Shown: positions 2,755 to 46,425 of the stretch, one piece after another | Numbering within the stretch: position 1 is the stretch's first letter | Layout of the letters: every line of letters starts with the position of its first letter | Source: a virus | Lineage: Duplodnaviria; Caudoviricetes | IMG/VR virus record: IMGVR_UViG_2974613666_000001 | Location: 32,001 to 96,000 of that record | Length of the DNA: 64,000 nt | Reading direction: 5' to 3' (one strand) | Program-made: the position numbers and the translations under genes | The notes under the pieces: generated by a model | The model's input: only the letters and a program-made list of their open reading frames with translations | The model's database searches: none | Told to the model about the DNA's origin: nothing

Positions 2755-4980
2755 ATGAAAATGATTAACGAACAAGAAATAAAGCAACTATTCTCCCGTC
2801 TGCAAAACATCCAATCTGGCACGTCTACAGGTGGACGGGCGGGGAGTAAAATATGGTTCAAATTGCCCCAGGGACAGGAGCAAGCTATCTGCGTTAAAGA
2901 TGTAGAACCTGGGGCTTGCCTGGGGTTGAAAGCCGATGACGGGCAATGGTATTTGACTCAGGCTAGTGAAATCTCTAGGGAGGAGCGATCGCGTCACCAG
3001 ATTAGCTATAGAAGGTGTGAGCAGAAGCCCGAAAACAACTATCCTATTATTTCTTTACTTTACCAAGACCAGAACTTATCTCAAGCGCCACTTAAGCCTG
3101 AATTCAAAATAGCTGAGTATTGGCTGACTGGTAATAAAAAATATAAATTAAAACTTATCACATCAAAAGATGGCGACCCCAGTATAGGCTACGACGACGA
3201 CAAGATGACAGTTGCCAACGATGCAGCCAACGCTTTTGTACATAATTATGGTAAAGGTAAATACTTGTTTGCATCATTTAGATTTGATTTTGCAACCGGA
3301 TACGAGTTTATTATAAAAAAACCCACAGGAGAAACAGTAGAAATAAAGTCCCCTAGCAATGCCGGCTTTGGGTATTTAGGAAATGGGATATATCAGTTCT
3401 ATATTGAGAATGGCATAGGACGTTCGTTGGATGCTATGCTTCCAGACATAAGGATAAATAACGAGACTAGGATGTTTGTCCGTAACGGTACAATTGGCGA
3501 TGTGTATTATGGACTTGATGCGCCTGGTGCTTACCTCGACGGGTTTGGCGGGAATGTCAAATACCTCACTTCTAGTTCTGGAGGTTTTGGCTTTTATGCC
3601 ACATCTAGGCTAAATTCTTATATATTGCCGGAAGGCAAGAATTACACAATATATGATGGCGAATTGATTGAATTAAGCGGTTCAGTCAGTATAAATTTAG
3701 GCGGAATATTTGAATACGAGGGAGTACCTACTGCTAATAATAACTATATTCCTCAGTTTTTAGATCGTCCGCTTTTTGGCTGGAGGAATAGAACAGTATC
3801 ACATACAACGTGGCTACCCAATGAAAATAAAACTTTTACCTTTTTTTCCACAGCAAGTAAAGATACAGTATCTGATCAAGATAACATATATAAGTATACT
3901 TACCTGGAAACTATGTCTGGTGAGCTAATGCTAATGAGTTGGGAAAAAGACTACATAGTGCATAAGTTCTCAGGAGTGAATAAAGAAACTAAGCACATAG
4001 TGAATGAAGAAACTAAGCACATAGAGGGGAATAATGCTACCCTTGCAGAATATATTGCTCCAGGTACACAAATATTAACTCTAAAAAGATATGGTGACGT
4101 GGACGGTGATAATGACCTTCAACTAAACGCAACAGGTAAATTTTTAATTTTACCTAAAACTTACAATACGTCTTTAACTCCAGATACAGTTTCATTTTCA
4201 GTAAGATTGGATTATGGTTTGGATTTTTACACAGATAGGCTTAATCCAAGCTTGGATTTATCATCTTATATAGGTGAAAAGATAATTACTTCTCAAACTA
4301 TGGGTGGTGTGAATTATATAATAAGAGGGTTTATAAAGGGCTTTACAGAAGATGCAAACGGTAGGTTGAATTTCAATATTACGGTAGAAAATATGTCCTC
4401 GATACCGAGAGCAGAGTCTTCTTTAAACTTTATTAAAAATAGAAACCATCCTTTTGTAGATTTTATAGTATTAGACAATGGTTGTTTCTGGAACTACTAT
4501 TTAAGCTCTGCCATTAATGCGGGAGCTATATCGTACAAAAGATTTAACTATGACGGATTTAGCTTTAAAGACATAGAGGGGATGTCTTTTGGTACGAGAA
4601 GAAAAACTTTGACCTGTGATCAGACGATGGGGTTTATCCATACGAACCCCATAACAGTACCTTTCTGCGCTTTATACTTAGATGACATATACGCGCCACC
4701 TGCTAGAGTTCTACTTACAGACAATTTAGTGGGTAGAAGTATTTATAGGGTTAATGATTTTTCATTAATAGACTCATATGTAGATGGAAGTACTGCCGAA
4801 GAACTAAAAATAAAAAAAATGCCTGTATCTGAATGGAAGATTGATGATGAGGGCAACGTTGTGTATAGCAAAACTTTTTTAGTAGACTACATTAATAAAT
4901 TCCCTCACATCAATCCTGACACAAAAACCATTGATCCGAACTTAACTCAATTTGGTAGCAGCTATCACCCAAAAGTTTAG
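2755..4980 (+). CDS. Hypothetical virion/tail-associated protein
   Basis: 741-aa ORF in the tail region, rich in aromatic residues, Gly and Asn. Contains a 24-nt tandem duplication (VNKETKHI/VNEETKHI). Confidence 0.6.
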   Translation: MKMINEQEIKQLFSRLQNIQSGTSTGGRAGSKIWFKLPQGQEQAICVKDVEPGACLGLKADDGQWYLTQASEISREERSRHQISYRRCEQKPENNYPIISLLYQDQNLSQAPLKPEFKIAEYWLTGNKKYKLKLITSKDGDPSIGYDDDKMTVANDAANAFVHNYGKGKYLFASFRFDFATGYEFIIKKPTGETVEIKSPSNAGFGYLGNGIYQFYIENGIGRSLDAMLPDIRINNETRMFVRNGTIGDVYYGLDAPGAYLDGFGGNVKYLTSSSGGFGFYATSRLNSYILPEGKNYTIYDGELIELSGSVSINLGGIFEYEGVPTANNNYIPQFLDRPLFGWRNRTVSHTTWLPNENKTFTFFSTASKDTVSDQDNIYKYTYLETMSGELMLMSWEKDYIVHKFSGVNKETKHIVNEETKHIEGNNATLAEYIAPGTQILTLKRYGDVDGDNDLQLNATGKFLILPKTYNTSLTPDTVSFSVRLDYGLDFYTDRLNPSLDLSSYIGEKIITSQTMGGVNYIIRGFIKGFTEDANGRLNFNITVENMSSIPRAESSLNFIKNRNHPFVDFIVLDNGCFWNYYLSSAINAGAISYKRFNYDGFSFKDIEGMSFGTRRKTLTCDQTMGFIHTNPITVPFCALYLDDIYAPPARVLLTDNLVGRSIYRVNDFSLIDSYVDGSTAEELKIKKMPVSEWKIDDEGNVVYSKTFLVDYINKFPHINPDTKTIDPNLTQFGSSYHPKV

Positions 4981-5058: not shown

Positions 5059-7479
5059 TTACCAGTCAGGCTTTCTACGGCTAACCACAATAGACCAATC
5101 TAGACCGCTACCTAGTGTTTGGGCTATTATCTGAAAAATGGTTAGATCAACTTGCGGAGGTTCTGGATCTGGAGGAATTTGTATTTTATCAAAAGTTACT
5201 ATTGGGTAATCACGCCTACCTAATGTAAGGCTAGTGACTGATGTAATTTTAGGCATACCGTTAATAGAACCAAGTATTGTGTCTGTAGTAGACGCTGATA
5301 GAATTGTGCGTCTACGATACTGGCCGTTACACCAATAAGTGAAAGGATCTCCCTCTTTGAGGTCTGGTCTACCTTCTATTTGAAGAGCCTCAGTAAAACC
5401 ATTCCGCCAATTCTCAACAGCTAGTTTACACCTCGCGCCAGTTATAGCTTGATCAAATGTAGTAGCTGCTGTGAAGGATTCTCTACCTCCAACTGGATTA
5501 CTAGCACTATAACCTTTAGATTGAATGAGATATCTATACTCTTGAGGTGCTGGATCTGTATCAGGTGGGGGTAGGTTGTCTGGGTCGTTTAACTTGAATA
5601 GGGGGGGTCTGCGAGGAGCTAAGGGTAACTCACCTGTACCTTCTTCTACAAATGTCTCTTCAACAGCAGAGGCGATCTCCTGACCCTGCGCGTTAAACTT
5701 TTTAATGTAGGTTGAGAATTTCTGGGGGGACACTTCTTCCTTGTTAGTAACTACAGAGACATTAAGGATAGGGTCTATGCCATAAGTATATTTATACGTA
5801 GGAGGTATTACTTCTGTAAAAGACTCAAACCTCGACTCCTCCCCTACTATTAATCTAGGTAGAAGCTTGTCGGTTGATCCGGGATCTATACCTGTATTTT
5901 CTGGATTCTCTCTGCTTTTATATGATACCGTCTCACTGCGCTCAAATTTTACATAGTAGGGAGGTGCATAATTAAGATTTTTTACAAACACAGGGGAACT
6001 TGTACCATCAGGATTGCACTCCTTACCTTGGACAAGAAAATCGCTGATACTGAATTTGTATTCAGGTATTATTTCTAAATATTTGCTTGATCTTCCCACT
6101 ATAGGAAGATCAAAAAACTGATATAGCTCAAACTCAGGATCTGTTGCACCTAATTGCAAAGTCTGAGGTGCTTCAGTGGATTCCTGTTTGTATCTAACCT
6201 TCTGGAAACCATAAGCGTAAGTAGACAGTAAATAACCTGTTTTAATATCATAATTATATGTTGTTGTTACCTGCCTAATTAGCTGCCAGTAGTTAGAAGG
6301 TATACCATCAAGCCCACCTGTACTAGCGCTATATAAATCATCGGCTATAAAGGCAAAACCATAGGTTTCGTCCACCTGTTTTGTTATAGTACCACCAGAT
6401 TCAGTAATTATAGAACGTGATTTGGTAGTACCTCCTATGTCAAAGCACAGACTCATAGTTTTTATTGTGTCTACACCTTCCAAAACATTGGGAGCATCCT
6501 CATCACCTTCTATGCGCTCTTTAGTTGTTAAATCAATAGCAGTGAAGGTGGGTATATAATTACCCTGCGTTGGGTCAACTATATCAGTATCTAGTGGGTC
6601 TGAAAACTCCCCTGTTAGCTCAACATTAGGATATTCAAACCCTAATGCAATATCCTCTGCTGCTTGTATAGTAGGTACTGGATAAGGTGTAGTTGTTAAA
6701 GGGAAAGTAGTCTGATTATTAAACGTTGGTGAGATATATGGCGGTGAGCTTATTACTGTCTTGGCAGTTCTATCTATAGCCTCGTAGCTAGTTTCTACAG
6801 CCCCGTAAATCTCCGATTCAGGATAATAAGCACCCCCGTAGACATTAATAGATGAAACCTCCACACCATTGGGATTACTCCACCGAATGAATGCGTTAGC
6901 AATCCTTACTCTTTCCTCTAGTAACTGTATTGGATCTACGACAGCATCAAGAGGAGTATTTTCTGGTATGTTTACGGGGTTTAAAGTAACTGAACCTAGG
7001 TAGGGTATGCCTATCTTAGATAGTAAGTTTTGAACTGTTGTAGTTTTGTTTGGATCTGGATCATCAGGATCGTCAGGTACTACGCAATCAGGATCAAGGA
7101 AAGGCACGTCAGTAGGAGGATTGTTAGTACCGTCTCCTCTCAGAAAAGCAACGCTTCCCGCATTATTCTCCCATCTACCACCAAGAGATACGCTGATTCT
7201 GCATCGGCTGTCAGGATGTATAGAACGGGGCATCTCCTGAATCTGAATGTTATTAATCCTAAAAGGTATTCCGTATATATTAAATTCTTTACCCGGTTTA
7301 AATATAGACTGTAATATGTTCTTAGATAACGTGGATTCAAGCTCTAACTGACCACTTGGATGCTGCTCAAACTGGCGGTTAATCTGCACAGTGCCAGTTA
7401 AAGGTAAATTGTAGAAGAATGATGGTAAAGATGTAAGCAGCTTAGGTGCAAAGGGTAATGGGTTAGGAGCCATAGACAA
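5059..7479 (-). CDS. Large putative phage structural (tail/baseplate-like) protein
   Basis: 806-aa Pro/Thr-rich ORF in a minus-strand operon next to tail genes. Function is inferred from context only. Confidence 0.55.
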   Translation of the reverse strand: MSMAPNPLPFAPKLLTSLPSFFYNLPLTGTVQINRQFEQHPSGQLELESTLSKNILQSIFKPGKEFNIYGIPFRINNIQIQEMPRSIHPDSRCRISVSLGGRWENNAGSVAFLRGDGTNNPPTDVPFLDPDCVVPDDPDDPDPNKTTTVQNLLSKIGIPYLGSVTLNPVNIPENTPLDAVVDPIQLLEERVRIANAFIRWSNPNGVEVSSINVYGGAYYPESEIYGAVETSYEAIDRTAKTVISSPPYISPTFNNQTTFPLTTTPYPVPTIQAAEDIALGFEYPNVELTGEFSDPLDTDIVDPTQGNYIPTFTAIDLTTKERIEGDEDAPNVLEGVDTIKTMSLCFDIGGTTKSRSIITESGGTITKQVDETYGFAFIADDLYSASTGGLDGIPSNYWQLIRQVTTTYNYDIKTGYLLSTYAYGFQKVRYKQESTEAPQTLQLGATDPEFELYQFFDLPIVGRSSKYLEIIPEYKFSISDFLVQGKECNPDGTSSPVFVKNLNYAPPYYVKFERSETVSYKSRENPENTGIDPGSTDKLLPRLIVGEESRFESFTEVIPPTYKYTYGIDPILNVSVVTNKEEVSPQKFSTYIKKFNAQGQEIASAVEETFVEEGTGELPLAPRRPPLFKLNDPDNLPPPDTDPAPQEYRYLIQSKGYSASNPVGGRESFTAATTFDQAITGARCKLAVENWRNGFTEALQIEGRPDLKEGDPFTYWCNGQYRRRTILSASTTDTILGSINGMPKITSVTSLTLGRRDYPIVTFDKIQIPPDPEPPQVDLTIFQIIAQTLGSGLDWSIVVSRRKPDW

Positions 7480-8329: not shown

Positions 8330-8894
8330 ATCACTTATTTTGATTACTAGCTCAATTATATAAACCCAACCACATATATATGTATGACCATTTAGAAGCG
8401 ATTTGGTTCTTAAGTATGACTTGATATCCCATCAACGCCCTGACTGTGATTTAGCAAGATTACTTTTAAGTTTGTTCGATCAGCTTCTGCTATCTCAGAG
8501 CCTGAACCGTATTATTAGCAATAGCTGAGGGTGTTCCAACATTCGAGGTAAGAATAGACTGATATGAATGTTAGAACACCCTTTTAACCCTTACTATATA
8601 TACGTTCTAGCCTTACGATCTTTTTAACTAGATCCAATAATTTTTACAATGAGTGCTATTCTATCTCACTAATTAATATAATTTTTGCTATCTATTATCA
8701 AGCTACTTAATTGATTATTGTTAGGGGCGATCGCTTTAGAGACGTTAGGGTACGCTGTTTACTCCTTATTGGGGCAAAAAAGTGGTGGGTGGTGACGGGA
8801 AACAGTAAATTACTAAAAATTTGCAGCACAAATGTCTGGACTACAAGAGCTAAAAATAAGCTTAAGGGTCGTAGCCCTTGGGTATATTGATTTG

Positions 8895-9753
8895 AAAAGC
8901 TTACCTGACCCTCTCAGCCAACGTCAGGCGATCGTCTGAGGGGAAGCTTTTGTTTTTGTCATCGAGTTTTTCTGATTTCTCAGAGTTGCGTCAATACAGG
9001 TAGTCTGCGGGAATTGTCCCGGTTTTTAAAATTTTGAGAATAGCTTTATACTTATCCGAAGTCTTCAGTAGTTCTTTTTTCACGCATCCCGGTCACAGGA
9101 GTTGGTACTCTGAAAGTTTCACCCTTTTATCCTAGTGGGTAACTTACTCTTACTCCTACCATCAGCAAGGTTCTTGAGTCGCCTGGTGAAATTCTTAGCT
9201 GGTGTCTTCTTAGCTCACTTATTGCGTCGTATTCCGCCTTCCGCTTACTTGACTTTATATACGAGAGTTCAAGTCCTCCACAGTTCGCTACACTGCTTTG
9301 TTTTGACCATTAACCAGAACTTCGTTTTATTACGGAGTTACGTTTCCGCATCAGCTTACAACCTTTTTCCTTTGGGCTAGTTTTACCGGGAACACCGCTA
9401 CCCCTCAGCTACTAAGAACTGCTATATAGTAACTTGACGCTACCCTAGCATATACTGCTTACCCTTCCAAGTTACACAGTCTTAGCACTTACTCATTCCC
9501 TCAAGGCTCCTATACTACCCATTCCTTGCAGAACTTCATACGTATCAGAGAGGTACTTGCCTGAGCATCTTTCTGGTTGCTCCGAGGTTATGCTCGGATT
9601 AGAATCTTGTTGACCTCTTTTATGAGGCTTTGCCTTACTCCCTACTCCCTGCCCTTCTAAAATAAATTAGATAGGTTGTGTTGTCGTGGTGGTTAGCATT
9701 CGCAAGATTAGCATCTGGTCACACTCGGCTTTACGCCGCAGGTATCAGATGCC
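8895..9753 (-). ncRNA. Large (~860 nt) structured non-coding RNA candidate, family unassigned (RNA-A)
   Basis: No credible ORF. Purine-rich minus strand with many hairpins (5' GGCAUCUG..CAGAUGCU, UGCG-GAAA-CGUA, CUGA-GAAA-UCAG) and a promoter directly upstream. Shares a 3' pseudoknot and sequence blocks with 41830-42197. Confidence 0.7.
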
Positions 9754-9756
9754 TAA

Positions 9757-9786
9757 ATAATAGCACAGGATTTTGATATGAGTCAA
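9757..9786 (-). promoter_or_regulatory. Sigma70-type promoter of RNA-A
   Basis: TTGACT-N18-TATTAT with an extended TG on the minus strand. Confidence 0.65.
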
Positions 9787-9818
9787 ATGTTTTTTGTAAA
9801 TATTGCTTTGTCAGTTTT

Positions 9819-9925
9819 GTTTCGATCCTTATTAGGGATCGTGCCTTTGTTATAACTCCTATTTAGAAAATCAGGTAATACTGTTTCTGTTTCAATCCTT
9901 TATAGGGTTATAGCATTTTTATAGT
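9819..9925 (-). CRISPR. Degenerate two-repeat, one-spacer CRISPR-like mini-array with no cas genes in the window
   Basis: Minus strand: ACTATAAAAATGCTATAACCCTATAAAGGATTGAAAC (37 nt), a 32-nt spacer, then GTTATAACAAAGGCACGATCCCTAATAAGGATCGAAAC (38 nt). The 3' halves resemble cyanobacterial repeats ending AATCCCTATTAGGGATTGAAAC. Confidence 0.6.
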
Positions 9926-10048: not shown

Positions 10049-11236
10049 ATGCTTAATCTTACTTACACCTACAAATTACAACCAACAGCGAAACAGATAG
10101 AAACCATAGAGCATAATCTCAACGTGTGTAAGTCTGTTTGGAACTATGCTCTATACGTCAGAAAGCTCTGGTACAATAGCCGTAGTTGTAAGATTAACCA
10201 ATGCTCTCTATTTCAGGAATATGTTGTTGAACCTTTTGAGTATCCTAACTACCATACTAAGTCTTCTGAATTAACACTTGCTAAAAAGACTAATCCTTTT
10301 CTTAAATCTGGTAATGCCCAAGCCATGCAGCAGACATTACGTAAGTTGGATAGAGCATTCAATGATATGAAGTCTAGAGGAATGGGGTTTCCTAGATACA
10401 AGAAAAAGATGAAGTCTTTTAATTTGTTAGGAGGTATATCAGTTCAAGGAAATATACTCAAGATGCCTCTACTTAAAGAGGTTAAGTTTAGAAAGTCAAG
10501 AGAAATTCCAGAAGGGTTCAAGGCTAAGCAAGTACAAATCATTAAAAAGGCAAGCGGTTACTACGCTAATTTAATGATAGAGCTTGATGTTAATGTTGCT
10601 AGTCCTACACCTCATGGTCATGCCTTGGGGATTGATGTAGGTATTCAAAACATGATAGCAACTTCCGACGGGTTGACGCTAAAAAGACCTAAGTTCCTAG
10701 ATAAAGCACTGCGTAAGATTAAATTACTACAAAGGAAGCTTAAAAAGAAAACTATTGGGTCTAATAACTGGAGAAGTCTGCAACATCGGATTGCTTTGTT
10801 ACATGAGGCTGTAGCAAATAGGCGTAAAGATTACCATTTTAAATTAGCTCACCAGTTGTGCGGAAATTCGGGAATGATATTTGTTGAAGATATTAACTTT
10901 GTAGCTTGGAGCAAAGGTTCATTTTCAAAACAGTCTCTAGATATGTGTCTAGGTCAATTCTTCAACATCCTTGAGTATGTCTGCTCTCAGACTGACACCT
11001 ACTTCAGTAAAGTAGATAAAAACTACACTTCTCAGATTTGCCCTAATTGTGGAACTCACACAGGTAAAAAAGACCTAAGTGTGAGGGTGCATAAATGTTC
11101 TGAATGTGGGTATGAGCGAGATAGAGACATAGCTGCTGCTGAAGTAATAAGAAATAGGGGTTTAGATAATATTGCGGTAGGAACTGCCGTGATTAAACAG
11201 TCCAGTAATGGCGTTCTAGCGGGGACTTCGGTCTAG
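10049..11236 (+). CDS. tnpB: TnpB RNA-guided endonuclease (IS200/IS605, IS1341-type)
   Basis: N-terminal YKLQPT motif, RuvC GIDVG / FVEDIN / DRDIAAA, and zinc finger CPNC..CSEC. A right-end hairpin and TTCAA lie at 11276-11280. Confidence 0.95.
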   Translation: MLNLTYTYKLQPTAKQIETIEHNLNVCKSVWNYALYVRKLWYNSRSCKINQCSLFQEYVVEPFEYPNYHTKSSELTLAKKTNPFLKSGNAQAMQQTLRKLDRAFNDMKSRGMGFPRYKKKMKSFNLLGGISVQGNILKMPLLKEVKFRKSREIPEGFKAKQVQIIKKASGYYANLMIELDVNVASPTPHGHALGIDVGIQNMIATSDGLTLKRPKFLDKALRKIKLLQRKLKKKTIGSNNWRSLQHRIALLHEAVANRRKDYHFKLAHQLCGNSGMIFVEDINFVAWSKGSFSKQSLDMCLGQFFNILEYVCSQTDTYFSKVDKNYTSQICPNCGTHTGKKDLSVRVHKCSECGYERDRDIAAAEVIRNRGLDNIAVGTAVIKQSSNGVLAGTSV

Positions 11237-11415: not shown

Positions 11416-11895
11416 GTGGCAAAATTGCATGAACATATTGCTAATACTAGAAAGGACTTTCATTGGAAAATAGCACATCAACTTTGTGATACTGCTCAAA
11501 CTATCTTTGTAGAAGATTTGAATTTAGTGGGATTGTCCAGGGGAATACTTGGCAAGCATTGTCTAGATGCTGGATGGGGACAATTCTTTGAAATTCTGGA
11601 GCAGTGTTGTTTTAAGCGTGGTGTATTTTTCCAGAAAGTAGATAGCCGAAAGACTTCTCAGATTTGCCCTAATTGTAGAATAGAAACGGGTAAAAAAGAG
11701 TTGTCACAGCGTGTTCATGTTTGTGAACATTGTGGCTATACAACTGATAGAGATGTTGCAGCCGCTCAAGTAGTTCTGATTAGAGGACTTGCAGCCGTCG
11801 GGCAGACGGTAAATATGCTTGCTGAGGGTAAATTCGTTGGAATCCCTGTGACGCAAGAATCCCCCCGGCTAGAAGCCGGGGGGAGTGTCAAGTGA
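11416..11895 (+). pseudogene. tnpB: C-terminal fragment of a second TnpB with an intact right end
   Basis: Has FVEDLN, CPNC..CEHC and DRDVAAA but lacks the N-terminus and RuvC-I. Right end is CCCCCCGGCTAGAAGCCGGGGGGAGTGTCAA, ending at 11891. Confidence 0.85.
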
Positions 11896-16036: not shown

Positions 16037-17320
16037 ATGTTATTATATATTAAGGAGGTAAGAAAAATGTTTGGATGTCAACAAAATCTAATTAATCCTG
16101 ACAAAGAAATAAAAGCGATACTTGAATTTCTTTGCAGTGAGTCCCAAAAACTAACTAATTGCGGGATCTATTATTCCCGGCAATTGTTTTTCAAGACTGG
16201 CAAAATCCCTAGTCGTGCTGATTTGCATAAAGAACTAGGTACAAGGAATTTAAACCCGCACTATCAGGCTTTTTACTCTGATACAGCACAACAAATCCTA
16301 ACTACCGTAGCTGAGTCGTTTAAGTCGTTTTTTGGATCACTCAAAGCCGTTAAAGCTGGTAAAGTAACCCAAAAACCTAAACTGCCAAAATACCGTAAAG
16401 GTGGTATGGCATTAGTGACTTATACAGGTCGTTCCGTAAAGCTTGAAAACGAATTACTGCGTTTCCCCCTTGGTTCTAAGGTTAGGGCGTGGTTTGGTAT
16501 TGACGCTTTTTATCTACCAATGCCATCAAACCTTGATCACAAATCAATCAGAGAATATCGGATATTGCCTAGAAATGGCTGCTTCTATCTTGAATTAGTC
16601 TATAAAACTGAACTAATTCAGGCAGAGGTTAATCCTAGCAATGCTTTGATGATTGATCATGGCATGAATAACTGGCTAACCTGTGTTAGCAATGTTGGCA
16701 CGAGTTTTATTGTTGATGGCAAGCATCTAAAATCTATCAATCAAGGTTATAACAAGCGTGTTGCGTCTTTGACGGAAGGAAAGGCTAACGGATATTGGAC
16801 TAAACGTTTAGCCAATATTACTGAAAAGCGTAACCGTACTATGCGAGATGCTATCAACAAAGCAGCCAGAAAAGTTGTTAGGCATTGCTTGGATAGCAAG
16901 ATTGGTACAATTATTTTTGGTTGGAATGTTGGGCAAAAAGACGGCGCTAATATGGGAGCGAAGACTAACCAAAAGTTTGTCCAGATTCCTACAGGTCGCC
17001 TTAAAGAAAGAATTAAACAACTGTGTGAGCAGTATGGCCTTCAGTTTGTAGAAACTGAAGAGTCATATACTTCCAAGGCTTCGTTTATTGATAGAGATTT
17101 TCTACCTACGTTCGGCGAAAAACCTGAAGGGTGGAAAGAATCTGGTAAGCGAGTTAAGCGTGGTTTGTACCGTACTGCTCAAGGCTATTTGATTAATGCA
17201 GACTGTAATGGCGCTGCAAATATGGGTAGAAAAAACGTAGCGGTGATGCTTGGACTAAATCTAAGCGGAATCAGTAGAGGCGATTTGTCAGCGCCTTTAA
17301 GACTTAAATTATGGTCTTAA
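16037..17320 (+). CDS. tnpB: TnpB of the clade with a rearranged RuvC-II and no Zn finger (likely start at 16067)
   Basis: MFGCQQNLI start, MIDHG, IIFGWN, EESYTSKAS and INADCNGA motifs. Confidence 0.9.
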   Translation: MLLYIKEVRKMFGCQQNLINPDKEIKAILEFLCSESQKLTNCGIYYSRQLFFKTGKIPSRADLHKELGTRNLNPHYQAFYSDTAQQILTTVAESFKSFFGSLKAVKAGKVTQKPKLPKYRKGGMALVTYTGRSVKLENELLRFPLGSKVRAWFGIDAFYLPMPSNLDHKSIREYRILPRNGCFYLELVYKTELIQAEVNPSNALMIDHGMNNWLTCVSNVGTSFIVDGKHLKSINQGYNKRVASLTEGKANGYWTKRLANITEKRNRTMRDAINKAARKVVRHCLDSKIGTIIFGWNVGQKDGANMGAKTNQKFVQIPTGRLKERIKQLCEQYGLQFVETEESYTSKASFIDRDFLPTFGEKPEGWKESGKRVKRGLYRTAQGYLINADCNGAANMGRKNVAVMLGLNLSGISRGDLSAPLRLKLWS

Positions 17321-33750: not shown

Positions 33751-35073
33751 ATGTTGACATGGGGTAGATTTGGGTATATATTTAAGAAGTCACCAAAACA
33801 TTGTGAGGTCGAAACAGTGCTGCTTTCCTTTAAAACAAGTCTAATCCCAAATAAAAAACAGGTAACTGCTTTTCGTAAAGCCTCTGGTGTTGCTAGACAC
33901 GCCTATAACTGGGCTAACGCTCAAATACAAGATGCTCTAGCTAATAAAGTTGAAGGAGAGAAACTTAAGGTTCCCAGTTCTATCGACTTGCATAAAAAGC
34001 TAGTTGCCGAAGTTAAACTGGAAAACGCTTGGTACTACGAAGTTAATAAGAACACCCCTCAAAAAGCTTTAGCTGATTTGCGGCAAGCATGGGATAGATG
34101 TTTTAAAAAGACTTCAAAACAACCAAGATTTAAAAAGAAAGGTCAACGAGATTCATTCTATCTAGAGTCAGGCACTAAAGCCAAACCAATGATTAAGAAT
34201 GACGGTAAGAGAATCAAATTACCCTCTATTGGTTGGGTAAGATTAGCCGAGCCTTTACCAATTACAGCAATTCATAATTGCGTTATTTCAAGGCAAGCTG
34301 GTAGATGGTTTATCGCTATTAAATATGAAGTTGAACAGCCAAGTGTTACTAGCGACAGACCGACTATTGGTGTTGATATTGGAATCAAAGAATTAGCTGT
34401 TTGCAGTAATGGCAAAGTGTTCTCTAACCCTAAAGCATACCGACGTATGAGCAAGCGTATGAAGCGTTTGCAGCGTAGTGTAAGCAAAAAAGATAAAGGT
34501 TCTAAAAATCGTAACAAAGCGATTAAAAAACTTGCTAAATTACACGCTAAAGTGTCAAACATCCGTAAAGATTCAATTCACAAATTGACTCACTATCTAG
34601 CTAAAAACCACAGCATTATAAAGATAGAGGATTTACACGTTAAAGCGTTTTTGAAGAATCATAAATTAGCAGGTGCGATTGCTGATTGTGGAATGTATGA
34701 GTTTAAACGTCAGTTGGAGTATAAGACAGAGAAATTTCAAAGTCAGTTAATATTAGTTGACCGATTTTTTCCTAGTTCACAAACTTGTTCTAACTGTGGA
34801 AATCATCGCCATAGAATGCCATTGAAAAACCGCATCTATGTTTGTCCCGATTGTGGTCATACAGAAGACAGAGATTTGAATGCAGCTAAGAATATAGACC
34901 GATGGTTTGAGAATATTTTTATTCCTGAACGGTCAGAAATGGTGAGTTCCACCAAGATAGCCTGTGGAGTAGAAAAACCGCTTAGAAGTCATTCTAAGAC
35001 TACTGTGAAGCAGGAAGTAAGCGCTAAAACTACTGATGTCCAGATAAGTCTAGATTTAAGTAGTTTTGGGTAA
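33751..35073 (+). CDS. tnpB: IS607 TnpB nuclease (likely start near 33817)
   Basis: GVDIG, IEDL, CSNC..CPDC and DRDLNAA motifs. Confidence 0.95.
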   Translation: MLTWGRFGYIFKKSPKHCEVETVLLSFKTSLIPNKKQVTAFRKASGVARHAYNWANAQIQDALANKVEGEKLKVPSSIDLHKKLVAEVKLENAWYYEVNKNTPQKALADLRQAWDRCFKKTSKQPRFKKKGQRDSFYLESGTKAKPMIKNDGKRIKLPSIGWVRLAEPLPITAIHNCVISRQAGRWFIAIKYEVEQPSVTSDRPTIGVDIGIKELAVCSNGKVFSNPKAYRRMSKRMKRLQRSVSKKDKGSKNRNKAIKKLAKLHAKVSNIRKDSIHKLTHYLAKNHSIIKIEDLHVKAFLKNHKLAGAIADCGMYEFKRQLEYKTEKFQSQLILVDRFFPSSQTCSNCGNHRHRMPLKNRIYVCPDCGHTEDRDLNAAKNIDRWFENIFIPERSEMVSSTKIACGVEKPLRSHSKTTVKQEVSAKTTDVQISLDLSSFG

Positions 35074-38958: not shown

Positions 38959-39306
38959 TTAATCCATTTCAATATAATTAGTCAACACATAAGCTGCTAC
39001 AGCCGTCCAGTAGTCCTTAAAGTTGGGAGCTAAACCGTTCCAAGGTTTTAACCCTAACCCCCAGCTAGCAGCGTCACCGTAGGCTTGATATAGCTTTGGT
39101 GCGAGATTGTCTACTGCGTTAGGTTCTGCTGTATTAGGTTCTGGTTCCTGGTCTACTTCAGGCTCTAACTCAACTTCGTGGGAGTCTGTATCAACTTCAG
39201 GCGAAGATGTACGCGATACATTGGCTAGGGGCGATCGCACCTCGAATGCTGATGATGGATCTGTTTCAGTGGGGGTGATCGTTCCTGTCTTCTTTTTTGT
39301 GGTCAT
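38959..39306 (-). CDS. Hypothetical protein
   Basis: 115-aa ORF with an acidic disordered N-terminus. Confidence 0.6.
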   Translation of the reverse strand: MTTKKKTGTITPTETDPSSAFEVRSPLANVSRTSSPEVDTDSHEVELEPEVDQEPEPNTAEPNAVDNLAPKLYQAYGDAASWGLGLKPWNGLAPNFKDYWTAVAAYVLTNYIEMD

Positions 39307-39468
39307 TTTGGTTGTGGGTATGGGTTTGTATTGATTGTATCTATTGTATCACGTGGGCAGTGAAGACTGAAAAGTGAGTGTCTTTGTTAAAAAGTGAGTG
39401 TCTTCTGGTATGATAGAGAAAAGAAAACCCCAGTCACAATAACTGAGGTTGGAAAGCTTTAAATTTGA

Positions 39469-40980
39469 TTAGTTAGTTCTGTAGCTCTTGAAAGCCGTTT
39501 TTAGCCCATGCTGAACACGGCTTTCAATGTCTTTGGTGAACCATTCCAGGCAATACTCATCTATTTCTGGATCTCTTCTGAGTATTTTTAAGTCAGCTAG
39601 GAATTTTTTATTGTGTAGCACAACGCACTCGTCAATTAGGTCTTTCAGTTCTGGCAAAAAGAAGTGTTCTCGTTTTGGCTTACTGAAATGGGTGAACTGT
39701 GGATAAACCCAAGCTTCGGTTTTAAAGTTGAAATCTCCTGAGTTAACGTCTAGATCATTGTTGCAAACACAAGCAATGTATAGGTTGGCTTCCCAGTAAG
39801 CTGTGAGCCTTGCATCAATAGATGTAGATGGCTCAAGCATTGCCCTACTTGTACTCTTAAGGCAGTTCAGCCATTTCTTAGACTGCTCATAGTGTTCAAT
39901 AGCTTCTAGCACCTTTTGACAGGTATCCGGGCAATGCCTGATTAGTCTGTCTGTAACTTGAGTAGAGATTATCCTATGCTCAAGCATAACAGCGAATATG
40001 TCGCGCACTTTGAAATCTTGAGGGTAGCCCGCAACTATAGACTTGCATAGTCTGTAGATTATACGCTCGTGTTCCAATTCTTCCTTATCGCGTCTTATAC
40101 TGTCGTTAATGTCTATAAGATCGCGACGTTCACCAAATACCGTGAACCTATCTCTGCTTTGATATAGCTCTGTTTGCTCATAAAGGTAGTCGAAGTCCAT
40201 CTGAAATAAGTCTGACCACTCTTTGTCTTTAACTATGTGTCCTTTTCCGGGCAAGCCTTTCTTAGCTATTATGTCAGCCGGGGCAGACGCTACGACGGCT
40301 TTTATTTTATCTCTGGAAAGCTGTAGCAATGATTCTACCCCTGTGTCCTTACGTGCCTTATAAATGAACCAGAACGCATTCTTAATCATGTACATTGCCT
40401 TGAACACGTTTCGCTGTATTTGAGGAGCTAGCACAGACAAATCATTGAAGTATTCAGCAGACCCCATGATCTTGGTGAGGTCTTGTAAGAGGGGGGATGC
40501 TTGGTTAGTAACATAAAACTCTAAGCTGTCTATTTTATGCTCCTGACGACGTTTAATCTCTTTCAACACGTCTATTTGGCGCTGCAAAGCCTCTATATCA
40601 GCATCACTACCTTGGTGCATCTTAAACTTGGTCAAATCCTGAATAAATGCAGTAATGCCAATACGTCCTAGAGAAATTAAGGCTTTAATTGCTTCTGGTC
40701 TTTTTTCTGAGGCGTAGTAGGAGATTACGGCATGGCAGACTATAGAGTTGTAGACTTTCTGGTATTGGTGATCACAGATGACTAAATCAGATTCTTTTTT
40801 TCCGAATAGATTAAACAATTCAGAAAAATTAGATTTATTCTGCATCGCGTTATTTATCAGAGAGGATACAGCCTGTTGTGATACCCCTGACATCCTAGCG
40901 ATCGCTGTTTGGTTCATCCCACTTACACCAGTATCCAGCGATATAAACACTTGATCGTTTGACTCAAATATAAAACTCAT
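39469..40980 (-). CDS. Antirepressor-like DNA-binding protein
   Basis: N-terminal TGVSGMNQTAIARMSGVSQQAVSSL..VISYYA..IGITAFIQ resembles cyanobacterial phage antirepressor N-domains. Confidence 0.6.
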   Translation of the reverse strand: MSFIFESNDQVFISLDTGVSGMNQTAIARMSGVSQQAVSSLINNAMQNKSNFSELFNLFGKKESDLVICDHQYQKVYNSIVCHAVISYYASEKRPEAIKALISLGRIGITAFIQDLTKFKMHQGSDADIEALQRQIDVLKEIKRRQEHKIDSLEFYVTNQASPLLQDLTKIMGSAEYFNDLSVLAPQIQRNVFKAMYMIKNAFWFIYKARKDTGVESLLQLSRDKIKAVVASAPADIIAKKGLPGKGHIVKDKEWSDLFQMDFDYLYEQTELYQSRDRFTVFGERRDLIDINDSIRRDKEELEHERIIYRLCKSIVAGYPQDFKVRDIFAVMLEHRIISTQVTDRLIRHCPDTCQKVLEAIEHYEQSKKWLNCLKSTSRAMLEPSTSIDARLTAYWEANLYIACVCNNDLDVNSGDFNFKTEAWVYPQFTHFSKPKREHFFLPELKDLIDECVVLHNKKFLADLKILRRDPEIDEYCLEWFTKDIESRVQHGLKTAFKSYRTN

Positions 40981-41186
40981 GCGTTGTTTCCTTTAGATAC
41001 GTGTTGTGCCAAAACTTCCTGAACTTTTACCAACTTTGCCAGTGATATAGTCTGGTATTGTGTTCGCTCCCACCTAGCTATCTGTTGCCTATGCAAGCCC
41101 AACTGATCAGCTAAAACTTGCTGTGACCAGCCTAGCTGATGTCGCAAATCTATCAGATGTTTAGGCAAGTTCTGTAAATCTATCAT
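40977..41186 (-). CDS. XRE-family HTH regulator
   Basis: LRHQLGWSQQVLADQLGLHRQQIARWE. Confidence 0.9.
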   Translation of the reverse strand: MIDLQNLPKHLIDLRHQLGWSQQVLADQLGLHRQQIARWERTQYQTISLAKLVKVQEVLAQHVSKGNNA

Positions 41187-41829
41187 TAGTATATCACCTG
41201 TAAACGAAAATGTTTCAACTATCCCACTTTATTATTGCTGACAAGTTGAGTATTGTCCAGATGTTGATTATAGGACTACTAGCTTAGAAACTACTAGCAC
41301 TTAGCATAAAATAAAGTATTTGACACCGATGTATATAATACTGCTTGTAGCTCAAATATATTGCTGTATAAGGGGTTCAGATTATTTTATGTGTGTTTGC
41401 TTGTACCTTGGATTTTTCTATGATTACCATAGAGATGTTACAAATTGTATTTTAGAGGCTGGAACGCTTATACAGTACATACTACAATGTTTACACTCCA
41501 TTTTTGCCGCCGAGGGTGTGTCAGATTCTGAAGTAATTAAATTCAGATTATTCCGATTTTGACACACCCTATTTATTTACATCTTTATAGCGATCACCAT
41601 AATCTAATTTAGTCAAAAGTTATACTATTTTAAATTATCTAATTAAGTTAAAGTATTGATATATAAGGATTATTGTCTAAGTATTACTATGAAGTTATAA
41701 CTCAAGCGGAAAAAATACTGATACTTAGTTAGATCGATTTAGGTCGTTTTAGTAGAAAGTATAGTTATGACAAATGGCTGAACATTATTGAACTAAAAAA
41801 ATAATGCTCTCGATGCTATTTAGTTTTGT

Positions 41830-42197
41830 AAAACTCCAGGACACTGCCAGATGCTTTATCAGTGCCGCTAAGAGGCATCTGGGGAGTTTGTTTTGCTATC
41901 ATCTTGCGAGTCAAGCGTTTTTCTAAAGACCGATGCTTTCACCATTGCTGGCAGCTTTCCGATTTTAATTAACTTTAGGGTTTATTAGGTAGATGGTGAC
42001 AGATGACCTTTTTTCTCGGTTCTTTTCATCCCTTTACACTGGTTTGGGTCTATTCGCACCAGCCCCGTCGGCCTTAACGACGTACCACTTTGCTTTTTGA
42101 GAGCTTCAACCCATTACTGGAGGCACTAGCGAACTAGTTGTGGATTTGCCTGGGTGTAGCTCGTCTCTTTCACCGATGAAGGCTACTTACGCACCCA
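41830..42197 (-). ncRNA. ~370-nt structured ncRNA candidate, paralogue of RNA-A (RNA-B)
   Basis: ORF-free. Contains ACUAG-UUCG-CUAGU and CCA-GUAA-UGG tetraloop hairpins and a 5' GGGUG..CACCC stem. Has the same 3' pseudoknot and conserved blocks as 8895-9090. Confidence 0.7.
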
Positions 42198-42202
42198 AAT
42201 AT

Positions 42203-42231
42203 ATAATAAGGTATTTCTCACCGTTTAGCAA
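42203..42231 (-). promoter_or_regulatory. Sigma70-type promoter of RNA-B
   Basis: TTGCTA-N17-TATTAT on the minus strand. Confidence 0.65.
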
Positions 42232-42318
42232 GTATTTCCGTAAAATAATCTGCTGCTGAGTTGGTAGTGTTTGTTTCTATCCATTTCTATCCCTAGGTTA
42301 GATAAAGATTCACCACCA

Positions 42319-42359
42319 AAAACAAACCCACTACGGTTAAGGTAGTGGGTTTGTTTGTT
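42319..42359. terminator. Intrinsic terminator
   Basis: AAACAAACCCACTAC/GTAGTGGGTTTGTTT. Confidence 0.7.
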
Positions 42360-42377
42360 TCATCATATTCAGATTAG

Positions 42378-42632
42378 CTAACTCACCGGATACCATCCAT
42401 CACCTTTCCAATAGCCAATGTCACCCTTTCTTGTAACTTCCCAATCTTCATCACTCCAATCCTTGGAATGTTCGTCGCACTTTTCGCAAAAGTAAAGGCT
42501 GTAAATCTCATTATCCTAGCTCACAGCGTTAAAACATCGCATCTTTGAGCCTGCTGGGAACGATCGCTGGCAACCATAGCATTGGTGTGTTTTGCATGTC
42601 TTAGCCTGTTTGTCTTCTAGAACTCTGGTCAT
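42378..42632 (-). pseudogene. Zn-ribbon protein interrupted by an in-frame TAG
   Basis: MTRVLEDK..HQCYGC..NAVS*DNEIYSLYFCEKC..; the stop is at 42516-42518. Confidence 0.65.
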
Positions 42633-42655
42633 TGTTTTACCTGCTGTCCTCTAAT

Positions 42656-42973
42656 TCAGTTGCCACTTGTTTTAACATCTTTGATTGCGATTATATTTAC
42701 TAATCTCATCGATCTAATATCTGTTTTCCATTCATTCCTACATTGCCTGAACGCAGGTAAAGAATAATCAGTGAATTCAAACTCCAGTAAATGAGCATAA
42801 CGCCCCTGTACCCACTGCGAGTTATTAAATTTACCATTCATAGGGTTGGTTTTAATCCAGGCAATATTAGGACTAAAGCACTTTTCCCGGTTACGGTGAA
42901 ATTGTAAGCTTTGGTGGTAGAGTGTTAAATCTCTTTCTACTTGGCACATCGCACGGTATAGAGTAAGGCTCAT
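42656..42973 (-). CDS. Hypothetical protein
   Basis: 105-aa ORF starting MSLTLYRAMC. Confidence 0.55.
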   Translation of the reverse strand: MSLTLYRAMCQVERDLTLYHQSLQFHRNREKCFSPNIAWIKTNPMNGKFNNSQWVQGRYAHLLEFEFTDYSLPAFRQCRNEWKTDIRSMRLVNIIAIKDVKTSGN

Positions 42974-42982
42974 AGCAAACCT

Positions 42983-43147
42983 CTATTCGTTTACTCCTGG
43001 GATATGGAAGTGCTTCCGCATAGATTTGATATAATCTCGCAGCACTTCCGCCATAGGCTGCTGTTTTGATTCAGCATAATCCTGTAACAAATTATATTCA
43101 TTTTCACTCAGTCTCACTTCTATTTTCCGTGTTCTTTTAGTTCGCAT
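42983..43147 (-). CDS. CopG/RHH-family regulator (54 aa)
   Basis: RKIEVRLSENEYNLLQDYAESKQQPMAEVLRDYIKSM, translated by hand. Confidence 0.75.
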   Translation of the reverse strand: MRTKRTRKIEVRLSENEYNLLQDYAESKQQPMAEVLRDYIKSMRKHFHIPGVNE

Positions 43148-43315
43148 AGTGTTAAATGTAATGCTTTATGCTATGCTTAGTCTATCACAGATACGAGGTT
43201 AATGACGATAGTATATCACCTATTTCAAGACATGATTAGAAATTATTGAGTAATAAAGTAGTACATCTGACTCTATATTTACATCAAATCTACACAAATT
43301 CACATAGTATCAATT

Positions 43316-43582
43316 ATGATAGGTATTGTCTACATGAAATTAAACAGGTTAAACATTGCACTAAGTGACTCTGATTTAAGATGGTTAACGATTTGGGCTT
43401 GGGTTAGTGGTCGAACTCCTGGTGCTTATGCTTCTCACATAGTCTCTAATCGAGTTTCTACAAACCTGAAAGAGATTAAGGGGCGACTACAGGATGAGGC
43501 AGATTTAAAGGGTATAAGCCTAAAAGAACTGATAAAAGAAATTGTAGGAGAGATAGATGATCCAGAAAGTAAGGAAGATTAA
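43316..43582 (+). CDS. RHH-like hypothetical regulator
   Basis: RLNIALSDSDLRWL..WAWVSGRTPGAYASHIV. Confidence 0.55.
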   Translation: MIGIVYMKLNRLNIALSDSDLRWLTIWAWVSGRTPGAYASHIVSNRVSTNLKEIKGRLQDEADLKGISLKELIKEIVGEIDDPESKED

Positions 43583-43588
43583 ATTGCC

Positions 43589-43831
43589 ATGACATTAGAA
43601 ACCAACACTAAATTCACAGGCATGATTATGTTCAGCCTGCTAAACCTGCTGATAGGCAGCGCAGCACTCAGTACCTTATCAAAAGTCTCACAAACAGCAG
43701 ATGAGACAGTTAGAATGCGTGTTGAGTTAGCTAATTTAAGCAAGTCACTGGATAATTATGTTGCTACCCATACAGAGCAATGGCGGCTTATTGATGCCAG
43801 ATTGCGCGATGTGGAATCCAAGATTAGGTAA
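43589..43831 (+). CDS. Small protein with a TM helix and coiled coil (holin/XhlA-like architecture)
   Basis: N-terminal hydrophobic helix and C-terminal IDARLRDVESK. Confidence 0.5.
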   Translation: MTLETNTKFTGMIMFSLLNLLIGSAALSTLSKVSQTADETVRMRVELANLSKSLDNYVATHTEQWRLIDARLRDVESKIR

Positions 43832-43851
43832 TAGACATCATCTCATTAAAC

Positions 43852-43886
43852 AAAAAACCCACTTAAAGCACTAAGTGGGTTTTTTT
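43852..43886. terminator. Bidirectional terminator
   Basis: AAAAAACCCACTTA/TAAGTGGGTTTTTT. Confidence 0.75.
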
Positions 43887-43907
43887 GATCAAATCTAAAA
43901 GGTGATA

Positions 43908-45995
43908 TTAGAAATCGACTTTCTTCAGTTGATCTTTAAACTCAATCAAGGCAACAGAGCCGTCAAAATAAATCACGTTATCAGCAGGGGCGATCGCTTG
44001 CCAATCTTTTCTGCTACCGTTTAGGTCTGCTGACAGGGTAAGTAAAGAAGCGTCTCCAGGTACATCACCGTATTTGGGTAGCGTTTGCCCTAGCACTTTG
44101 CGAGAGTCACGCCCTTGTACCTTGTAAGCTGCCATACCGCCAACGAAAACTGAGTCTTCATTCACTAACAGGGTTTTGGCTCTCAAAGCGTTCCCGTCCA
44201 TCGAGTCGGTGCGAGTCAGTGTAAATTGACCACTAATAACTTTCAAAGTATTAGCGGCTAAAACACCTGTGTAAGATATATGATTTGCTTTGGTTTTTGT
44301 TCCCAATGAGAACCAGTCCACACCCTCAGCAATAGTCTGTGTTTTCAGATCGAAGCCATTCCATCTGAAAACGCTATTACCACCTGCTGACTCGCCTAAA
44401 ACGTATAACTTGTCTCCCACAAGTTGAATACGGTAAAGCCTAGCGTCAGCCATATCGTTACCGAGAGATTCGGGATCAAAGTTCCAACCGCTTCGGACAA
44501 TTTGGAAACTTTTGCTAGCATCAAATACTTTTAAGAAAGCAACTTGAACTGGCACACCTTGACGGGTGCGGTTACTGAAACCAGCAACATAGATTTCATT
44601 ATTGCTTATTTGGACATCTTGCAGATATGTGCCAGACTCACCCCATCTAAAAACTTCTTTATAGTTGGAGTCGTAAACTGCAAATTGATTTCCGTTTTCG
44701 CCAACATTTTCAACAATTACTGTGTACAGCGTACTTGCAGCTAACCTTACACCGTTCAATTCCTTACCTAAACTTTTAATTACCTCTGTTTTCGCTGTGC
44801 TTGGGTTATAGCTAATAAGTAAGCTTCTAGTAACTGCCAAAATCACATTACCGCGTAAAGCTACAGCTAAAGTAGGTTCAGGCGAGATAACCTTTGCCTT
44901 ATCTCCATCAATTTCTACAAACCCAGACCCTTTAGACGCAACATACAGTTTACCGTTGTATTTAATGGCATCTTGAGGTTGCAGTATAGGTAACTCTTGG
45001 ATGTTGGTTACTTCTTTTCTGGGTGCAGTCTGGATGGGAGTAGAAAGGAAGTAGGGGGTGAAGTAAGGTTCTTGCCCACCATGTCTAACGTAAGTAATCA
45101 ATTCATTACCTACTTTCGCAACAGAGCGAGTGTATCCAACGTCTAAGCGTTCTTGAGGATAGAATCTATCTTCTTTTGCCTTGTACAGTAGCGTACCTTG
45201 GTTGGCGATAAAGATCACTTCACCTGGAGCGATAACTTCAACCATACCATTGTACCAAGCGGGGCTGATTTCCCGCCAACTCTTTTCATTGAGTTTGCGC
45301 TGAAACTGACCCTGTTGAGTGTGAGCGTATAGTGTGTTAGTGGTAGTATCCAGAGCAAGTTGGCAATTAGAGGAATTGGGTTTATTTCCGGTAGCATTGG
45401 TTAGGTTTAGACCCTCAATTTTACTTGTTACTTCACCAGTAGCTAGGTTGCATTCAACCATACCGTCAAAATCCCTAAAACCAATATAGAGAACATCTCC
45501 CAGAAGAATAAACGAGGTCATTACCCGACCTTTAATTAAGGGATTCGACTCTAAATTGATGCTTCTGGTAGAGCCACTGGCACTTAGTAAGCTCCCTTTT
45601 AACTCTCTCTCCCCTAGAGTTAACGCAGAAACGTCATTGCAGATTATTTTATTTGCTTTAATCCCAGGGAAGCTAACCCAAGACTGAATATCTTGATTAC
45701 GAATGTCGGGAACATAATAAACATCTGTATGTAATTTCATCCACCCCTTGTAGGGGTCGGTAGAGGATGGGCGGTACTCGTAGTTGTTGTAGAAGTTTAC
45801 AAGTTTGTTCTTATCCAAGGAGCCGAAAGGTTTGATCGAGAGTCTTTCTTGCGCCCCACCTCCCCCATAAATAACAATTTCATCACGCAAACAAAATACT
45901 ACCTTACCCGCAGACGGGCTTAAAGCAAATGATTTGTAGTACTCATTTGGGTCATTGTGGTTTGTGTCGAAGCCTAAATCTAGTCTTGTAGTCAT
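43908..45995 (-). CDS. Putative beta-propeller protein
   Basis: 695 aa with repeated blade-like motifs (GDVLYIG, NGKLYVA, NEIYVAG, DKLYVLG). Confidence 0.6.
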   Translation of the reverse strand: MTTRLDLGFDTNHNDPNEYYKSFALSPSAGKVVFCLRDEIVIYGGGGAQERLSIKPFGSLDKNKLVNFYNNYEYRPSSTDPYKGWMKLHTDVYYVPDIRNQDIQSWVSFPGIKANKIICNDVSALTLGERELKGSLLSASGSTRSINLESNPLIKGRVMTSFILLGDVLYIGFRDFDGMVECNLATGEVTSKIEGLNLTNATGNKPNSSNCQLALDTTTNTLYAHTQQGQFQRKLNEKSWREISPAWYNGMVEVIAPGEVIFIANQGTLLYKAKEDRFYPQERLDVGYTRSVAKVGNELITYVRHGGQEPYFTPYFLSTPIQTAPRKEVTNIQELPILQPQDAIKYNGKLYVASKGSGFVEIDGDKAKVISPEPTLAVALRGNVILAVTRSLLISYNPSTAKTEVIKSLGKELNGVRLAASTLYTVIVENVGENGNQFAVYDSNYKEVFRWGESGTYLQDVQISNNEIYVAGFSNRTRQGVPVQVAFLKVFDASKSFQIVRSGWNFDPESLGNDMADARLYRIQLVGDKLYVLGESAGGNSVFRWNGFDLKTQTIAEGVDWFSLGTKTKANHISYTGVLAANTLKVISGQFTLTRTDSMDGNALRAKTLLVNEDSVFVGGMAAYKVQGRDSRKVLGQTLPKYGDVPGDASLLTLSADLNGSRKDWQAIAPADNVIYFDGSVALIEFKDQLKKVDF

Positions 45996-46353: not shown

Positions 46354-46425
46354 TGTCGGGTATGGGAGTTGAACCCACTTTTTTCAGGATATGAGCCTGA
46401 CGTGAAACCGTCTCACTCACCCGGC
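46354..46425 (-). tRNA. tRNA with CAT anticodon (elongator Met or Ile2); CCA not encoded
   Basis: Cloverleaf: GCCGGGT/ACCCGAC acceptor, GTGA/TCAC D-arm, TCAGG-CTCATAT-CCTGA anticodon arm, GTGGG-TTCAACT-CCCAT T-arm. Confidence 0.9.

Follow-up and report, generated by a model that had tools for sequence, protein, structure and literature searches.

The stretch 41830-42231 of the window raises two questions: does it carry a structured non-coding RNA, and is this RNA (RNA-B) a compact paralogue of a larger one of the same phage (RNA-A)? The window is the whole stretch of DNA analysed (64,000 nucleotides) and covers positions 32001-96000 of an IMG/VR virus record that is 145.4 kb long and rated as complete; coordinates are those of the window unless the genome or a contig is named. 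The record is near-identical to Nodularia phage vB_NspS-kac65v162 (v162; MK605244, genus Ravarandavirus), a siphophage whose host is N. spumigena KAC65, from the Baltic Sea. In the GenBank record of v162, the RNA-B region is filled by three "hypothetical proteins", gp100-gp102 (32-39 aa, both strands); these small ORFs of mixed strands overlap the pseudoknot and the hairpins described below. In the window, the ORFs of the stretch are all below 45 aa and of mixed strands, and no credible coding sequence is seen among them. The reading retained here, to which a probability of about 0.6 is given, is that RNA-B is a separate expressed non-coding RNA gene of this Nodularia cyanophage and one of three related modules. 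To our knowledge, bacteria and phages have few large structured non-coding RNAs, and nearly all of these lack a known function.

All features of RNA-B given in this paragraph are on the minus strand. The transcript is placed at ~41814-42196; its 5' end is deduced from the -10 hexamer and its 3' end from contig ends and the U-run, both being approximate. It is preceded by a sigma-70-type promoter, TTGCTA-17-TATTAT (42203-42231), with 9 of 12 consensus matches; promoter-like sites are about equally frequent in shuffled sequence, and the promoter by itself proves nothing. A 5' terminal helix (42152-42196), GGGUG...CACCC closing an inner 5-bp helix, is predicted without covariation, and a UUCG-capped hairpin (42138-42127) and a GUAA-capped hairpin (42121-42112) are likewise predictions. 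An A-rich block (41890-41927) leads to an enclosed H-type pseudoknot of 59 nt (41831-41889). The latter is made of an outer helix of 7 bp (41889-83 with 41837-31), a helix 1 of 8 bp (41882-75 with 41854-47) and a helix 2 of 7 bp (41866-60 with 41846-40) that crosses helix 1. The spacings are 0 nt from outer helix to helix 1, loops of 8 and 5 nt, abutting 3' strands (0 nt) and 2 nt to the outer strand. A weak hairpin followed by U7 (41794-41826) is the probable terminator; it is missed by a simple terminator scan. The promoter, both tetraloop hairpins and the outer helix with its two crossing helices are present as in the preliminary description of the locus; the resemblance of sequence blocks to RNA-A, which was part of the same picture, does not exceed chance (see below).

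Enclosed pseudoknots with three helices of at least 7 bp are four in the 145 kb genome, vs. a mean of ~0.6 in block-shuffled genomes; an earlier descriptor with 6-bp helices was too permissive (~90 matches). RNA-B is a G+C island, with 41-49% G+C vs. 23-27% downstream. Its minimum-free-energy z-score is 0.1 vs. shuffles, and fold energy is equally uninformative for RNA-A, i.e., this measure has no power here.

RNA-B is identical in all five independent copies (including v162, two ENA contigs and one Logan contig), and so is the whole 1.7 kb intergenic region around it. With no variation among the copies found, covariation backs no helix of RNA-B. Isolated phages, IMG/VR and 389 Nostocaceae genomes yielded no diverged homologue of the RNA-B type. 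The BLAST matches obtained in these 389 genomes, short and clustered on the 3' half, were rejected as chance; they fall in unrelated, apparently coding sequence (one with a PAS-type motif). Rfam gives no family at gathering score in the window except a tRNA elsewhere, and only chance-level matches at E<=10 on the RNA-A and RNA-B loci. The tRNA in question is called by Rfam at 46354-46425 (minus strand, 46.8 bits); ARAGORN reports none there, and no tRNA or tmRNA gene in the window.

Parts of the RNA-B stretch are contained in six metatranscriptome runs. Contigs of four runs, from three studies, were mapped on 39000-45000. Contig X16 (41814-42013) covers the pseudoknot and has a depth of 94.6, vs. 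2-24 for other phage contigs in the same run; the others are X17 (41846-42173), X18 (41886-42170) and X15 (41886-42560). In three of the four runs the contig is confined to 41814-42173, and in the fourth (X15) it reaches upstream to 42560. The interval 41165-41813 is covered by no contig of the four runs, a weak hint and no proof of termination. Such contigs show neither the strand, the true ends nor the level of a transcript, and RNA libraries may contain carried-over DNA; the uneven depth of the contigs argues against such carry-over. RNA-B is present in environmental RNA libraries, sometimes at high depth.

The RNA-A module (8822-9786, minus strand) comprises a promoter TTGACT-18-TATTAT (9786-9757), an RNA at ~9750-8862, a pseudoknot (8941-8894) and a box (8841-8828). 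RNA-A is 77% identical to its v162 copy (MK605244 39591-40540), while the flanking genes are 96-100% identical: it is a divergence hotspot between the two phages, with entire hairpins gained or lost. In RNAalifold, 25 pairs are preserved between the two copies through changes on both sides. Indels between the two phages disrupt the RNA-A counterparts of the small annotated ORFs and leave the base pairs intact. A 17-mer from RNA-A searched in IMG/VR matches only lysine-rich coding sequence, and these matches were discarded.

Relatives of RNA-A were sought through homologues of the nearby DHH phosphoesterase, from which syntenic uncultured phage contigs were fetched. A covariance model (R1) of the 3' 140 nt of RNA-A and the v162 copy matches three uncultured phage contigs: L101 (50.6 bits, E 3e-7), L110 (49.6 bits) and L107 (40.6 bits, E 1e-5). 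Each homologue lies within a gene-free gap behind a consensus promoter. In the alignment of these five sequences (A5: RNA-A, v162 copy, L101, L107, L110), over the enclosed pseudoknot and the small terminator hairpin, 92.8% of cells are paired and 9 of 25 pairs are changed on both sides; none of 500 shuffles reaches as high, and slid controls pair only 26-50%. All three pseudoknot helices covary in the family, the outer helix being entirely replaced in L107. RNA-A is a real structured RNA, and it has homologues in other phages.

The direct comparison of RNA-A with RNA-B is much less favourable. Their local alignment has a z of 1.1 vs. dinucleotide shuffles and of -0.8 under another scoring scheme, and the regions upstream and downstream of the two RNAs likewise align at chance level. 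R1, searched with filters off, does not list RNA-B at E<=10; a nhmmer profile of the A-type 3' ends gives it an E of 26. A second model (R2), built from A5, aligns the 3' 155 nt of RNA-B end to end and in register, including the A-rich block and the weak hairpin with U7, which are placed on the A-rich block and on the hairpin and U-run of the family. RNA-B is then the best non-self match in the window, but with a score of only 17.4 bits (E 0.39). The best non-self match genome-wide of the 28-nt block preceding the RNA-A pseudoknot is the A-rich block of RNA-B, narrowly (28 vs. 26). The geometry of the pseudoknot is the same in both RNAs; its loops are not conserved between them. In the family, helix 1 starts 0-1 nt after the outer helix, the loops that precede and follow the first strand of helix 2 measure 6-9 and 4-7 nt, the 3' strands abut, and 0-2 nt lead to the outer 3' strand; the spacings of RNA-B fall within these ranges. 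RNA-B also has the near-consensus sigma-70-type promoter ahead of a non-coding stretch of 250-1000 nt that is common to the family.

Several grounds of the preliminary description are therefore lost, i.e., (i) the "colinear blocks" do not exceed chance; (ii) the loops said to be conserved have no statistical support; (iii) the "compensated stems" are, on sequence alone, indistinguishable from two unrelated pseudoknots. The covariance model R1 succeeds for RNA-A, with homologues in three phage contigs, and fails for RNA-B.

What else connects the two loci lies past the pseudoknots, in elements that the preliminary description does not mention. Relatives of RNA-A all have a near-invariant box ~50 nt past the pseudoknot, right after the U-run. 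RNA-B has the same arrangement on the same strand, a U-run and then a 14-nt box ~45-55 nt after the pseudoknot: its box (41770-41783, minus strand, 48 nt after the pseudoknot) differs from the 14-mer GTTCAGACATTTGT at a single position. When up to one mismatch is allowed, the 14-mer from L101 and L107 matches the window at exactly two places, where 0.08 would be expected by chance; they lie on the minus strand, at 8841-8828, 53 nt past the RNA-A pseudoknot, and at 41783-41770. Genome-wide, three sites are found, behind RNA-A, RNA-B and a third module, RNA-C. A 20-letter version of the box has no match in 389 Nostocaceae genomes and an 18-mer version no exact match in IMG/VR. Among the matches of the 18-mer listed in metagenomes, L114, L135, L140 and L171 are true modules, and most others are chance or an unrelated repeat. 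This unrelated repeated element carries the box 18-mer in ~60 nt of conserved context (L115, L121, L131, L146, L150, L160, L161 and others). The box is the most conserved element and is outside the RNA contigs, so the key function of the module could reside in the DNA itself or in an infrequent read-through transcript.

The other shared element is a long distal hairpin, AGGGTGTG...CACACCCT at the RNA-B locus (41513-41570, ~260 nt past the pseudoknot). Hairpins of the form GGGTGT...ACACCC are two in the window (expected 0.06), one at each locus (8528-8582 for RNA-A), 260-310 nt past the pseudoknots. Related distal hairpins follow the RNAs in L101, L107, L108 and L171, and the long hairpin with GGGTG/CACCC arms 190-330 nt further downstream, typical of the family, is thus also found for RNA-B. 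In L108 and L171 it is followed by a U-run on the RNA strand, i.e., a canonical terminator; the A-type modules and RNA-B have no such U-run. An AT-rich tract (23-27% G+C) comes after each RNA.

RNA-C is outside the window and spans the ends of the linear record on the minus strand (genome 1-731 and 145,050-145,400; loci L113 and L112). Its promoter is TTGACA-18-TATATT (genome 731-702, minus strand), the RNA measures ~780-800 nt with a body of ~700 nt, and its box, which is perfect, and its hairpin are at genome 145,301-145,050. It has a 5' hairpin resembling that of RNA-A, and its enclosed pseudoknot is cut by the record end. v162 has the same ends as the record, with an RNA-C body 88% identical. 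Further modules were found in uncultured phages: one of 480 nt in L108, and two convergent ones, ~250 and ~400 nt long and 2 kb apart, in L171. The second of these (L171b) has an enclosed pseudoknot with the geometry of RNA-A and RNA-B, and its box shares an identical stretch of 18 nt with that of RNA-B; the L171b/RNA-B alignment has a z of 5.8, all of it from the 3' end. There are 2-3 paralogous modules per genome.

The order of elements, i.e., A-rich block, enclosed pseudoknot, U-run, box, AT-rich spacer and GGGTG...CACCC hairpin, is common to RNA-A, RNA-B, RNA-C and the modules of uncultured Nostocales phages. The downstream box, the distal hairpin and the geometry of the pseudoknot lead to the conclusion that the RNA-A and RNA-B loci are paralogous modules, though their bodies are unalignable. 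Body length varies from ~250 to ~1000 nt, no alignment of the bodies is obtained between lineages, and the part that aligns across the family is restricted to the 3' 150 nt. These results support an undescribed RNA family, absent from Rfam, whose 3' core is conserved and whose 5' body varies and can expand; RNA-B is its compact member. The family proposed in the preliminary description is thus retained, on the basis of homologues, covariation and flanking elements in place of the arguments first given.

Sequences resembling CRISPR repeats occur near several modules. At RNA-B, a short palindrome is followed by the tandem 10-mers GGATAGAAAT then GGATAGAAAC (42273-42300, minus strand), ~40 nt upstream of the -35 hexamer; this feature is tentative. 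The tandem resembles, in degenerate form, the 3' handle of Nostocaceae CRISPR repeats; chance alone often produces variants of the handle 10-mer with one mismatch. Array repeats end with GGATTGAAAC in 343 of 389 Nostocaceae genomes and also in the related phages L103 and L105. The case is clearer for L171, in whose modules the CRISPR repeat hairpin is reproduced together with 2-3 tandem copies of the 3' handle (the last ten bases), within the RNA or immediately upstream: the mimic is inside the RNA in L171a and just upstream of the promoter in L171b. L171 has in all three solitary CRISPR repeat mimics, at 3290-3340 (plus strand), 6097-6145 (minus) and 7115-7165 (minus), with handles duplicated or triplicated.

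Some neighbouring elements should be mentioned for themselves. Two CRISPR-repeat-like units, ~43 nt apart and one of them ending with GGATTGAAAC, are directly upstream of the RNA-A promoter (9815-9920, minus strand); they could be a mini-array or solitary repeats. They adjoin a TnpB gene (10049-11236, plus strand) which is missing there in v162 and whose closest relatives, at 77-83% identity, are in Pleurocapsales and other cyanobacteria. TnpB/IS605-family ORFs, one of them a fragment, are at 10049-11236, 11416-11895, 16037-17320 and 33751-35073, in a genome of lytic type. The related phage contigs L105 (567-6800) and L103 (1-1404) carry a type I-C-like cas set (cas3, cas5d, csd1, cas7) and long CRISPR arrays, and L103 has two extra copies of the 10-nt handle after the last repeat. 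L110 (1300-3512, minus strand) has a Cas12f/TnpB-like gene of 568 aa, after which come a promoter of its own and a short, partly masked CRISPR-like array; this unit is immediately upstream of the promoter of the A-type RNA. Near RNA-B, a strong bidirectional terminator-like hairpin (42320-42352, 13-bp stem flanked by A- and U-runs) sits between upstream small genes and the promoter region.

Four explanations of the module were weighed. The locus might hold no functional RNA at all, a promoter-like site and a chance pseudoknot coinciding in a region that encodes gp100-gp102 or serves only as regulatory DNA. This is highly improbable. The v162 annotation of 32-39 aa ORFs, promoter-like sites as common in shuffles, three other enclosed pseudoknots in the genome and an RNA-B without covariation can be cited for it; however, these ORFs come from both strands and share sequence with the pseudoknot and hairpins, their RNA-A equivalents are destroyed by indels that spare the base pairs, the 3' half of RNA-B is enriched in one RNA library, and the architecture is that of RNAs supported by covariation. 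A cis-acting role is unlikely as well: RNA, box and distal hairpin would govern read-through from the strong promoter into genes of the same strand, as leader or termination control comparable to put/nut antitermination or to an attenuator. Every module indeed points to downstream genes of the same strand, which would be an XRE regulator and a 503-aa HTH protein for RNA-B and gp047-gp044 for RNA-A. The box and the hairpin lie between RNA and genes and are more conserved than the body, the distal hairpins of L108 and L171 end as canonical terminators, and the neighbourhood of RNA-B is rich in regulators (Arc-like and XRE genes). Nevertheless, 250-1000 nt far exceed known antitermination RNAs, the hairpins of RNA-B and of the A-type modules have no U-run on the RNA strand, the two L171 modules converge and, as a weak argument, no RNA contig bridges 41165-41813 in four runs.

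It is quite improbable that the modules are RNA-primed replication origins, in which a folded pre-primer RNA would form an R-loop at the box and AT-rich stretch, with the distal hairpin as primosome-assembly or stop site, as for ColE1 RNA II and the T4/T7 origins. The very AT-rich tract after each RNA, the box placed exactly at the RNA end and the several copies per genome agree with this scheme, and the phage encodes its own family-A DNA polymerase and a clamp loader. (This polymerase and the neighbouring proteins of 503 and 806 aa have no relatives in isolated phages or IMG/VR outside this phage group.) The cumulative GC skew of the genome has its maximum at ~71-73 kb (window ~39-41 kb), beside RNA-B, and its minimum at ~6-9 kb; the maximum near RNA-B would fit an origin, but GC skew in phages mostly tracks gene orientation. 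Moreover, a primer that is short-lived should not reach the high steady-state depth of the RNA-B 3' half, nor would it be expected to have an elaborate pseudoknot that covaries or hypervariable bodies, and two convergent modules 2 kb apart, as in L171, fit it poorly. The function favoured, tentatively and with the odds against it, is that of a stable trans-acting RNA with a lineage-specific decoy or scaffold body. This guess is made because of the strong host-type promoters, the 2-3 paralogues, the fast-diverging bodies that keep their pairs, the conserved 3' platform and the repeat mimics of L171.

For such a trans-acting RNA, the conserved 3' core would terminate transcription, protect the RNA from 3' exonucleases and/or bind a common partner. 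The fast-evolving 5' body would carry a lineage-specific "cargo", i.e., a trans-acting decoy or scaffold in the conflict between phage and host. A readable cargo is seen only in the relative L171, where hairpin and handle imitate those of the host CRISPR repeat; a decoy mechanism is accordingly a best guess, drawn from this one relative and from the tentative repeat-like tandem upstream of the RNA-B promoter. A more general proposal, which is doubtful, is that the modules are an RNA "display scaffold" of the phage: a nuclease-resistant 3' pseudoknot platform and box/hairpin control elements, with interchangeable, fast-evolving cargo that neutralises host defences, i.e., a modular anti-defence system made of RNA only. 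If so, RNA-A, RNA-B and RNA-C would be three differently loaded versions in one phage, and the CRISPR-repeat mimics the first readable cargo.

Whatever the function, ~2.5 kb annotated as "hypothetical protein" in these phage genomes are probably RNA. The system offers good experimental handles: 2-3 paralogues, a covarying pseudoknot, two flanking elements, fast-diverging bodies, signs of expression in nature and a cultivable pair with Nodularia spumigena KAC65. Should the bodies be defence decoys, a new route by which phages package RNA-based counter-defence would be obtained; should the box and the hairpin mark origins or antitermination sites, early control regions would be defined for an otherwise unannotated group of cyanophages.

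The modules can finally be compared with known systems. They differ from the guide (omega) RNAs of TnpB/IscB, since no TnpB or IscB gene is near RNA-B, and the TnpB gene beside RNA-A is on the opposite strand and absent in v162. With ColE1 RNA II and the transcript-primed origins of T4/T7, they have in common a strong promoter and a folded transcript several hundred nucleotides long, then a conserved site and an AT-rich stretch; in contrast, there is here no antisense regulator, the RNA is apparently abundant, the body is hypervariable and L171 has a convergent pair. HK022 put and lambda nut are also paralogous RNA elements downstream of early promoters, with a conserved box and hairpin. They measure 60-75 nt and contain no pseudoknot; in the present modules, the box comes after a U-run of terminator type, and ~250 nt more lead to the hairpin. 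RNA anti-CRISPRs (Racr), which Camara-Wilpert and colleagues are said to have described in 2023 as solitary repeat units of phages, are short repeat mimics. The copies of the CRISPR repeat hairpin and handle in the L171 RNAs or immediately upstream, and the repeat-like units just upstream of RNA-A and RNA-B, recall them; but Racrs are not known to be embedded in a scaffold of 250-1000 nt with a 3' pseudoknot, and the tandem of RNA-B is degenerate and upstream of the predicted promoter.

The last comparison is with GOLLD and ROOL (Rfam RF01998 and RF03087). Like them, the RNAs described here are encoded by phages, measure hundreds of nucleotides and have an elaborate structure with pseudoknots; a tRNA gene is ~4 kb from RNA-B. 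GOLLD, which like ROOL is often borne by phages or prophages, also combines a conserved 3' part with a variable 5' one. RNA-A and RNA-B nevertheless match neither covariance model, even at E<=10. We know of no description of a conserved box and distal hairpin for GOLLD or ROOL, while RNA-A, RNA-B and RNA-C belong to modules that come as 2-3 paralogues per genome, each with its conserved box and distal hairpin.
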